From positions 30,884 to 94,883 of IMG/VR virus record IMGVR_UViG_3300037261_000012: a DNA stretch of 64,000 nucleotides; one strand, given 5' to 3'. How positions within the stretch are numbered: position 1 is the stretch's first letter; every line of letters starts with the position of its first letter. Position numbers and translations under genes: made by a program. The DNA comes from a virus. This document shows, piece after piece, positions 62,925 to 64,000 of the stretch. The notes beneath the pieces are model-generated. The model was not told the DNA's origin, made no database searches, and saw nothing but the letters and a program-made list of their open reading frames with translations.

Positions 62925-62953
62925 GCACTAGGTAGCATTGGCGGTGTTATACT
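62925..62953 (+). promoter_or_regulatory. class II (GGTAG) promoter for the lysis region
   Basis: GGTAG-12-TATACT with extended -10 TG. Confidence 0.6.
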
Positions 62954-62986
62954 TATCCCTGAAATTCCAATAATTTAGGAATACCA

Positions 62987-63850
62987 GTGAGCACTGAAGA
63001 ACGGGCTATAGTCTTCGTTGATGTGGTTGGTTCAACTGCTTTGAAGGTAGAGCAGGGGGATTCAACGGGGGCGGCAGAGGTTGCCAATAAGCTTAATAAA
63101 ATAGAGGCTGCTTTAGTTAAAGCAGACCCTACTGCTAAAAGGCATGGCCCTTCTGAGGGTGATTCTTTCCTGCTGATTGGATCAAACACTTTAGCCTTGT
63201 TCAAGGCTGCTGTAAATTTTCAAGCCTTGGAGATGGTGTGGAATTCAAGTATGTCTGTTCGTATCTCAGTAGGCCGTGGGGCCTTTGAGGCAATGCCTGA
63301 TGGTAATTTTCAGAGTTTGAGAGGGTCAAGTATAGATATGGCTAGAAGGATTCTGGAGTACTGTAATCCGTTTGGTGTGGTAATTACAGAGTATGTGCGT
63401 GAAATAGTACGTTCAGCAGGTCTTGGTGGCAGTTTAACTAGGTGTGAGGAGGAGTTGAAGGGTTTCGGCTTGGAGGTCTTTTATACTACAGGTAAAGAAG
63501 ATCGAAAAGAAGGCGTCCTTATGAATAGACGTTTGACTGACATGCAAGTAGTATCTCTTACTTCCAGAGTTGATGAGATGGACTCAAAACTTGGTAAGCA
63601 CATGAAGGAAGAAGAAAATTACAAGAGACTGTTTTTAACAGACTTGACCTTAATTAAGAATAACACGGCTGGAATAGTAGAAGCCTGGGAAGCTATTTCA
63701 GGAGGATTAAAAATACTAAAGTTCATGGCTTATTTGGGGAGATTAGTAGCTTATATGGCTACTGGTTTTGCAGCCGTGTGGGCTTTTACACATATTAGTG
63801 AAATTTCATGGGCTACCTTGTGGCATCTACTAGGGGTGGCTAAAGAATGA
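62987..63850 (+). CDS. class III nucleotide cyclase fused to a coiled-coil/transmembrane lysis-cassette domain
   Basis: IVFVDVVGST, EGDSF, VRISV..G, G..ID.A.RI, ELKGFG; hydrophobic C-terminus. Confidence 0.8.
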   Translation: MSTEERAIVFVDVVGSTALKVEQGDSTGAAEVANKLNKIEAALVKADPTAKRHGPSEGDSFLLIGSNTLALFKAAVNFQALEMVWNSSMSVRISVGRGAFEAMPDGNFQSLRGSSIDMARRILEYCNPFGVVITEYVREIVRSAGLGGSLTRCEEELKGFGLEVFYTTGKEDRKEGVLMNRRLTDMQVVSLTSRVDEMDSKLGKHMKEEENYKRLFLTDLTLIKNNTAGIVEAWEAISGGLKILKFMAYLGRLVAYMATGFAAVWAFTHISEISWATLWHLLGVAKE

Positions 63851-64000
63851 AACTAATTGATGAGTGGAGACTCCAGCTAAACAAGCTATGGAGTGTCCGC
63901 ATAACAATCTTTCTTACGCTGCTGGCGGGGTCTGATCAGATTCTTGGGCTTTTTCAACTGTATATTCCACCTGTGGTTTATTCCTTGCTGGGTATAGCTA
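63848..64000 (+). CDS. holin-like membrane protein (5' part)
   Basis: MKLIDEWR....LWSVR followed by hydrophobic helices. Confidence 0.7.

Follow-up and report, generated by a model that had tools for sequence, protein, structure and literature searches.

What is a nucleotidyl cyclase domain doing in a phage lysis cassette? The question is raised by a 64,000-nt stretch of DNA (hereafter, the window) that lies at the very end of a 94,883-bp IMG/VR virus record, IMGVR_UViG_3300037261_000012 (with terminal repeats, and rated 100% complete), near the end of which a single gene encodes a protein, P0001, that joins a class III cyclase-homology domain to a small membrane protein of the lysis cassette directly ahead of the holin gene. 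The overall explanation that we favour, tentatively, is that P0001 might be a tail-anchored class III nucleotidyl cyclase of this cassette. Its parts differ in firmness: that the architecture and the fusion are real is very nearly certain, a cytoplasmic cyclase domain with a membrane-anchored topology is likely, cyclase activity is, judging by the residues retained, somewhat probable, and a role in lysis timing would be a possibility held with considerable reserve. What an initial annotation of the window had proposed stood as far as the cyclase domain, its non-canonical specificity residues, the in-frame fusion and the holin overlap are concerned (by fold, profile, conservation and synteny), but not in its promoter or in the conservation of an internal start; the roles that it had suggested, namely, lysis timing, superinfection control and jamming of host signalling, are not told apart by the results.

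A single gene overlapping the holin gene

P0001 is encoded by one uninterrupted open reading frame (ORF) of 287 aa plus stop at 62987–63850 (+), which opens, in the ORF reading of the window, with a GTG preceded by AGGA. The feature had been annotated as beginning at 62925, and, while its single in-frame ORF is borne out, that position belongs to the upstream spacer; the GTG at 62987 encodes the same residue at which the ATG-started homologues P0002 and P0003, collinear with P0001 over its full length, start in the alignment. At the other end, the frame does run into the start of the holin gene, as annotated, by way of an ATGA stop/start overlap at 63847–63850 (+; P0001 TGA at 63848–63850, holin ATG at 63847–63849), which indicates that P0001 is translationally coupled to the holin.

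The holin is a 69-aa two-helix protein (DUF7940, E 7.2e-7; phrog_1356, “holin”), the 5′ part of whose gene occupies 63847–64000 (+), with the rest found at the record start. The last 127 nt of the record (63874–64000 of the window) are the same as its first 127 nt (L002:1–127), and, as this repeat lies inside the holin gene, what is labelled a “direct terminal repeat” is an overlap left by circular assembly, with the lysis cassette divided between the two ends of the record. Once these ends are joined, P0001 and the holin are followed by a signal-arrest-release (SAR)-type endolysin (160 aa with a SAR-like N-terminus; Phage_lysozyme PF00959, E 4.6e-33; phrog_7, E 9e-46) and by an Rz-like i-spanin, in whose gene that of an Rz1-like lipoprotein is nested, the genes downstream of the endolysin matching spanin PHROGs; the spanins, together with the SAR endolysin, indicate a Gram-negative host.

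Reality, spread and plausible history of the fusion

Could two adjacent genes have been joined by an assembly or sequencing error? A search for the same fusion in other phages found it in P0002 (on L003, a 3.1-kb JGI contig) and P0003 (on an 89.9-kb ENA contig; its 90%-identity cluster contains P0143 as a second member), both with the same two-part architecture at 57–58% identity to P0001, so that the fusion is not unique. The linker of both homologues is five residues shorter than that of P0001 and contains no stop, and an artefact is excluded by the same frame being present, with differing linker length and no stop or frameshift, in three independent metagenomic sequences; we found nothing in support of such an error and consider it scarcely conceivable. 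The fusion is, judging by these sequences, real and rare, being represented by three lineages. Downstream of the fusion gene, L003 has an extra 67-aa ORF and then a holin with homology to the one described above (phrog_1356, 36% identity), a SAR endolysin at 78% identity, and a spanin.

Within the wider cyclase family (42 relatives aligned), a strongly hydrophobic segment comes after the cyclase domain in 33 of the 42, mostly 10 residues or fewer from the C-terminus, and is in many relatives preceded by a coiled coil. The C-terminal module of P0001, in turn, belongs to a family of small helix-plus-anchor proteins that is designated A3 here, and within the cyclase family it is confined to the P0001 clade; the genome itself contains one A3 module and one cyclase domain. 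The simplest history that these sequences suggest is that a tail-anchored cyclase gene situated beside a lysis cassette became fused with the A3 gene next to it.

As for other cyclase-family genes, P0027 on viral contig L006 comes after tail genes, is flanked by three ORFs for coiled-coil-plus-anchor proteins, and is then followed by membrane protein, lipoprotein and GH108-like ORFs. The flanking ORFs were considered as A3 homologues, which would have represented the unfused state, and were rejected (hhalign probabilities of 0.6–4.6%). A 60-aa ORF downstream of the cyclase-family gene on the same contig (L006:7123–7305, +) ends in EGGYVN, a motif typical of the N-termini of GH108-type endolysins, and then stops, and it may represent a truncated or frameshifted endolysin. 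On L007, the family gene (3613–4350) follows a tail fibre gene and a receiver-domain-like gene, with an integrase-like ORF further downstream; the receiver-domain-like gene (L007:3257–3628, +) encodes a 123-aa CheY-type receiver-like protein (so labelled only from inspection of the sequence and from PHROGs without an assigned function) and overlaps the cyclase-family ORF by 16 nt on this temperate-looking contig. In the few contexts read, a late-region membrane neighbourhood is common for cyclase-family genes.

The cyclase domain

Residues 1–170 (62987–63496, +) are, by predicted fold, profile and column conservation, a complete, minimal and divergent class III cyclase-homology domain. The AlphaFold2 model of P0001, built on an alignment of the 42 relatives sharing the cyclase domain (profile A2), has a predicted local distance difference test (pLDDT) value of 89.3 overall and of 92–98 across this domain, and superimposes on Ma1120 with a Z of 21.3 (root-mean-square deviation 2.1 Å, 160 of 162 residues aligned) and on Rv1900c with a Z of 20.5, the top 50 entries of the structure comparison all being class III adenylyl or guanylyl cyclases; an earlier, shallow model had already given a Foldseek E of 5e-11. 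At the sequence level, the A2 profile matches 1ybt (Rv1900c) at E 2.9e-11, Ma1120 at 3.2e-10, 3mr7 at 3.8e-8 and Rv1264 at 7.7e-4, a profile of three sequences matches the cyclase domain of Rv1900c (1ybt; E 2.5e-7), and the NCBIfam LipJ model recognizes residues 7–160 of P0001 (E 1.5e-4) as well as P0003 (E 4.7e-7). ESM Atlas features, taken as a lead only, point to Guanylate_cyc clusters (0.97) in 29 of 30 matches.

About 60 proteins sharing the domain were found by an exhaustive search of 1.84 billion representatives. No family was assigned to P0001 by Pfam (E ≤ 1), PHROGs or PADLOC, the last of which returned none for P0002 or P0003 either at E ≤ 10, and no match was obtained by tblastn of P0001, P0004 and P0043 against 50,697 phage records, nor any relative by scans of prokaryote genome contigs with A5 and A6, nor any match by scans of viral contigs with A1, A6 and A9. 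BFVD holds a few proteins with the cyclase domain from uncultured phages and giant viruses, all of them distant. One relative, encoded on L004, was set aside as a cellular 1351-aa cyclase/kinase/WD40 protein that is distant and has only the cyclase domain in common with P0001; the N-terminal class III cyclase domain of this protein (L004:7953–12008, +) closely resembles the P0001 N-terminus (DLVGSTALKVEKGD) and is followed, by a reading of the sequence, by kinase-like and WD40-like regions.

Catalytic and specificity residues

Do the residues of the domain speak for a working enzyme? The motifs singled out in the initial annotation are where it had placed them (FVDV, residues 10–13, with D12; EGDS, 57–60, with D59; IDMARR, 116–121, with D117 and R121), and its statement that both metal-binding Asp residues and the catalytic Arg are kept agrees with the hidden Markov model alignments to Rv1900c and Ma1120, which have D12, D59 and R121 on the expected positions (codons, all on the + strand, at 63020–63022, 63161–63163 and 63347–63349). 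In the alignment to Rv1900c, D12 and D59 fall on the metal Asp residues, S110 on the second specificity residue and R121 on G+8; the numbering of Rv1900c, which we take to be D302 and D346 (metal), D395, His402 (G+4) and Arg406 (G+8), fits the alignment offsets. The phosphate-binding Arg of the RIGIH motif and the Lys of the KG motif are both present as R92 (63260–63262, +) and K158 (63458–63460, +), and the transition-state pair has its Arg (R121), with Asp (D117, 63335–63337, +) in the place of its Asn.

The specificity positions were mapped by comparing the wild-type Ma1120 row with the KDA-to-EGY mutant row in the PDB list, which puts the Lys, Asp and Ala of the Ma1120 triad on H53 (or P55), S110 and R120, respectively. 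The adenine-specifying Lys had correctly been described as missing: its counterpart is H53 by alignment or P55 when counted from GD, there being two candidates because the turn is longer by two residues in the family. The replacement of the canonical Asn by Asp (D117, at the G+4 position) was likewise seen. Among the 42 relatives (21–58% identity), D12 is found in 41 of 41, G58–D59 in all 42, R/K92 in 41, S16 in 40, D/N117 in 39 (D in 26, N in 13), G113 in 38, R121 in 34 and K/R158 in 33, and positions 55 and 110 are variable, the former never being Lys. Such conservation is, as far as sequence comparison goes, the pattern of a working phosphoryl-transfer site whose base preference is unreadable. 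By the same comparison, the Asp at position 117 would not be disqualifying, since a third of the family has Asn there and the active Ma1120 and Rv1900c carry Ala and His. The cytidylate and uridylate cyclases that belong to Pycsar owe their specificity to other residues, next to the two Asp (PMC11224242), so that a pyrimidine or other substrate can be neither excluded nor inferred for P0001.

The same residues bear on the possibility of a nucleotide-sensing pseudo-enzyme, which would bind ATP or GTP without useful turnover and provide an energy-state input to the A3 module, the latter acting like an antiholin or a holin cofactor, so that lysis would be timed by the nucleotide pool. Non-canonical residues at the base-specifying and Asn positions, the loss of R121 in 8 of the 42 relatives, and an output part that is a lysis-cassette protein and not a soluble effector would all be in keeping with this; the invariance of the metal Asp residues and the retention of the phosphate-binding Arg and Lys across 21–58% identity are, however, what a working site looks like, and Ma1120 (Ala) and Rv1900c (His) are active likewise without the Asn. 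We consider such a pseudo-enzyme improbable, and read the domain in what follows as that of a tail-anchored cyclase.

The C-terminal module and the A3 family

Beyond the cyclase domain, a flexible linker (residues 171–178, 63497–63520, +; pLDDT 52–61 over residues 171–190), which contains the 5-residue insertion relative to P0002 and P0003, leads to the A3 module (residues 179–287, 63521–63847, +). That the frame continues without a stop into a part with a coiled coil and a transmembrane segment, as annotated, is matched by a predicted 90-residue helix, modelled by AlphaFold as a single one spanning residues 181–270, and by a weakly hydrophobic C-terminal segment. The module begins with RRxxD and continues with the long helix, a conserved NTAGIVEAWEAISGGLKILK helix (63662–63721, +, from the A3 alignment), the weakly hydrophobic anchor (about 63722–63796, +, from hydropathy) and a 17-residue tail.

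The exhaustive search of 1.84 billion representatives also returned about 80 small proteins (70–155 aa) that match only profile positions 172–265, and it is these that the A3 alignment and profile represent (the family-library checks covered 31 members). Their shared features are an N-terminal RRxxD, a long helix, an NTxxIVEAWxAIxGGLKVL helix and an Ala/Gly-rich hydrophobic segment near the C-terminus; residues 179–270 of P0001 match the family from the first motif to the anchor, and the A3 profile, run against the genome of this phage, matches at E 6.9e-26 over model positions 6–96 of 107. The C-terminal 109 residues of P0001 are, by these matches, a whole copy of the small protein and not a fragment of it. 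The family has no home in Pfam or PHROGs: DUF1515 (PF07439) is sub-threshold in 2 of the 31 members (best E 9.5e-4, 19.6 bits against a cut-off of 22.2) and XhlA (PF10779) in one (E 0.0027), neither being found for P0001.

The C-terminal segment of P0001 is a probable tail anchor. Its Kyte–Doolittle 19-residue maximum is 1.36, close homologues reaching 1.47–1.53 and A3 members 1.14–2.14 (median 1.62), the usual threshold for a membrane segment being 1.6. The anchor (P0001 residues 246–270) is rich in Ala, Gly, Ser and Thr, a composition that recalls SAR-type helices able to exit the membrane.

What A3 proteins do on their own might be judged from five IMG/VR loci that provide the contexts of stand-alone A3 genes (L005, L008, L009, L010 and L011). 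In L005, two tandem A3 genes (L005:2767–3455, +; hhalign 99.4% and 97%), which are diverged paralogues, come immediately before the holin-like and endolysin genes, the order downstream of them being an 89-aa membrane protein, the endolysin (Phage_lysozyme, E 4.5e-45) and nested genes resembling those of spanins. In L009, there is an overlap between the A3 gene and the start of an M15-type endolysin gene (phrog_894, E 5.9e-17), after which come a 70-aa two-helix protein and Rz/Rz1-like genes; in L010, a Peptidase_M15_3 gene (E 9.8e-18) and a 183-aa multi-helix membrane protein precede the A3 gene, which in L011 comes after an Amidase_2 gene (E 1.2e-8) and in L008 lies between a gene for a 170-aa membrane protein and an unassigned 115-aa ORF. 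An identifiable endolysin gene is thereby no more than one gene away in four of the five loci (all except L008), and calling the module a “lysis-cassette membrane protein” is justified. As a separate holin-like gene is present at each stand-alone locus, the A3 family looks, from these contexts, like a lysis accessory protein rather than the holin itself.

A second product of the gene has also to be weighed. The possible internal ATG at 63521 does exist (M179), has a GAAGG 7 nt upstream, and coincides exactly with the start of the stand-alone A3 members just before the RRxxD motif, all of which would suit a dual-product gene, in which a 109-aa stand-alone A3 protein and the long form make up a regulator/effector pair like the products of dual-start holin/antiholin genes. 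The start is, however, not conserved: in P0002 and P0003 the position is occupied by Thr, and the protein alignment shows no start codon near it, so that a short product would be specific to this phage at most and is not a conserved trait of the clade. A dual-product gene is, in our estimate, quite improbable, more so than the pseudo-enzyme considered above.

A proposed mechanism and its alternatives

If P0001 is a tail-anchored cyclase of the lysis cassette, it would be synthesized late in infection along with the holin; the weakly hydrophobic helix at its C-terminus would insert in the inner membrane, with the cyclase domain staying in the cytoplasm, where nucleoside triphosphates (NTPs) and metal ions are found. 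Class III cyclases need a head-to-tail dimer, and the long helix could pair two chains into one; a complex prediction with two full-length P0001 copies scored 0.01, which gives no verdict and is not counted either way. The dimer would then convert an NTP of unspecified base to a 3′,5′-cyclic nucleotide at the membrane, and P0001 might tune or report holin triggering, either via this nucleotide product or via a nucleotide-dependent change passed down the helix to the membrane module. A role in lysis timing seems the most likely of the roles considered, because the anchor is a lysis accessory protein and the only copy in the genome. With no cyclic nucleoside monophosphate (cNMP)-binding domain encoded by the phage, any receptor would have to come from the host's proteins, from the A3/holin machinery or from something that goes unrecognised. 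A further step, that the product serves as a second messenger in lysis (a cyclic nucleotide, possibly other than cAMP or cGMP, whose build-up times the pinholin or whose release at lysis signals to neighbouring infected cells), is one that we deem unlikely.

A number of results weigh against this explanation. On the side of the enzyme, the Guanylate_cyc family PF00211 was matched neither in a six-frame search of the genome at E ≤ 10 nor by any of the 42 relatives at E ≤ 0.01, the latter pointing to a divergent clade missed by current annotation; the canonical Asn is an Asp, R121 is lost in 8 of the 42 relatives, and the purine-specifying pair, Lys/Asp for ATP or Glu/Cys for GTP, is absent from P0001 and variable in the family, so that the substrate base is not readable from sequence. 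The anchor value of 1.36 lies below the 1.6 threshold, so membrane insertion is not certain, and the complete 94.9-kb genome contains no match to a cNMP-binding domain (PF00027, E ≤ 1). On the side of the link to lysis, no cyclase domain was found in the phages with stand-alone A3 genes, two complete genomes included, and no A3 gene on L006 and L007, the viral contigs with other cyclase-family members; as the two parts thus occur separately, A3 works without a cyclase, and their link in P0001 could be one of convenience. Finally, genomic context is at hand for only 4 members of the cyclase family.

Several of these points would suit an active cyclase that serves host take-over and has no lysis role, in which cAMP or a different cNMP, made late, reprogrammes host regulators (CRP-type) or conditions neighbouring cells, A3 is a borrowed anchor replacing the usual tail, and the place of the gene between DNA-transfer and nucleotide genes on one side and the lysis cassette on the other is due merely to an insertion-tolerant junction. 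Unrelated hydrophobic tails anchor the whole family, so that what stays constant is anchoring and not A3; in other phages, the A3 module and the cyclase are found independently of each other; the L007 member comes after a tail fibre gene and a receiver-like gene with no endolysin seen nearby; and a phage without a cNMP receptor fits a host target. What speaks against it is the ATGA coupling to the holin, the keeping of the gene position in L003, and the fused module being the genome's only A3 copy, so that A3's job in lysis must fall to P0001. Host take-over alone appears to us rather unlikely, if less so than the pseudo-enzyme or the dual-product gene, and a tail-anchored cyclase acting within the lysis cassette is the explanation with which we continue.

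Comparison with known systems

P0001 would seem to be a known kind of enzyme in an unexpected place. The closest known proteins are Ma1120 (PDB 4WP9, 5D0G) and Rv1900c/LipJ (PDB 1YBT), with which it shares the whole-domain fold, detectable sequence homology, both metal Asp residues, the RI(G/S) Arg, the G+8 Arg, the KG Lys and the lack of an Asn at G+4; it differs from them in its low identity (about 20%), in not being recognised by PF00211, in the specificity triad (H(P)/S/R, as opposed to the K/D/A of Ma1120), and in being encoded by a phage, tail-anchored by a helix at its C-terminus and coupled in translation to a holin. Membrane-bound class III cyclases of bacteria, such as Rv1625c/Cya, have a dimeric cyclase domain at the cytoplasmic membrane face, as P0001 would; in those enzymes, the cyclase domain is preceded by a membrane domain of six helices at the N-terminus and by a signalling helix, whereas the helix and single weak anchor of P0001 follow the domain.

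The cyclases of Pycsar (PycC) are class III-type enzymes with non-purine specificity residues that are involved in phage–host conflict, and the membrane effectors of the system (PycTM/PycTIR) kill by membrane damage (PMC11224242). In Pycsar, the cyclase is host-encoded, whereas P0001 is phage-encoded, has its membrane part fused and has no cyclic nucleotide-binding domain; PycC structures were not among the A2 profile matches, and, by the PADLOC, PF00027 and PDB profile checks, P0001 does not classify as a Pycsar cyclase.

As for the membrane part, the holin-accessory proteins XhlA, which accompanies XhlB in PBSX, and gp24.1 of SPP1 have the same build as the A3 module (a cytoplasmic long helix and a C-terminal anchor) and the same place beside holin and endolysin genes; with XhlA, this is an analogy for which homology is not shown, and the host is Gram-negative here. 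Antiholins and dual-start holin genes (lambda S107/S105, T4 RI) are examples of small lysis-cassette membrane proteins that set lysis time. The internal start of P0001 would similarly give a long and a short form, but is not conserved, and, while T4 RI senses in the periplasm, any sensing by P0001 would be cytoplasmic. Our full-text literature searches turned up no account of a cyclase within the lysis cassette of a phage, nor of an adenylate cyclase like P0001 that is encoded by one.

Upstream region

The late-type promoter that had been proposed for the gene was not recovered, there being no sigma-70-type site in the 96-nt spacer (62891–62986). The sole promoter-like element of the spacer is an extended −10-like TGTTATACT at 62945–62953 (+), a weak candidate whose pattern occurs three times in the window against 1.75 expected; TGNTATACT is not enriched in the window, no spacer motif recurs within it, and the RNA of a terminator-like hairpin at 62917–62944 was not upheld, the spacer folding no better than its shuffles (z −0.44).

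Directly 5′ of P0001 is a gene for a 125-aa protein with a dATP/dGTP diphosphohydrolase N-domain (62513–62890, +; PF18909, E 7.6e-14; phrog_18716), a second nucleotide-handling gene at the cyclase junction. It is preceded by a gene for an 88-aa DUF7220 membrane protein (62237–62503, +; E 2.5e-25), the start of which overlaps the end of a T5 A1-like DNA-transfer gene (60636–62249; phrog_1745, E 6.5e-149). A near-palindrome, CTGCAATTGATTGCAG, located in the short spacer before the A1-like gene (60607–60622), was flagged as terminator-like.

Significance

Phage lysis timing is thought to be set by holin accumulation and antiholins, with superinfection signals in T4 and N4, and we know of no cyclic-nucleotide input to it. 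Whatever the role of P0001, two unannotated families are defined here, namely, a tail-anchored class III cyclase clade undetected by Pfam and a lysis-cassette accessory protein of Gram-negative phages, and one gene with a three-gene lysis cassette makes for a compact, testable system. Should P0001 turn out to be no more than a cAMP synthase that manipulates the host and has borrowed its anchor, it would still be a new architecture, if a modest finding; should the enzyme be active, its non-canonical specificity residues could widen the known range of cyclase products; and, should the second-messenger reading be true, it would amount to a nucleotide-based lysis clock or lysis-inhibition signal without a described precedent.

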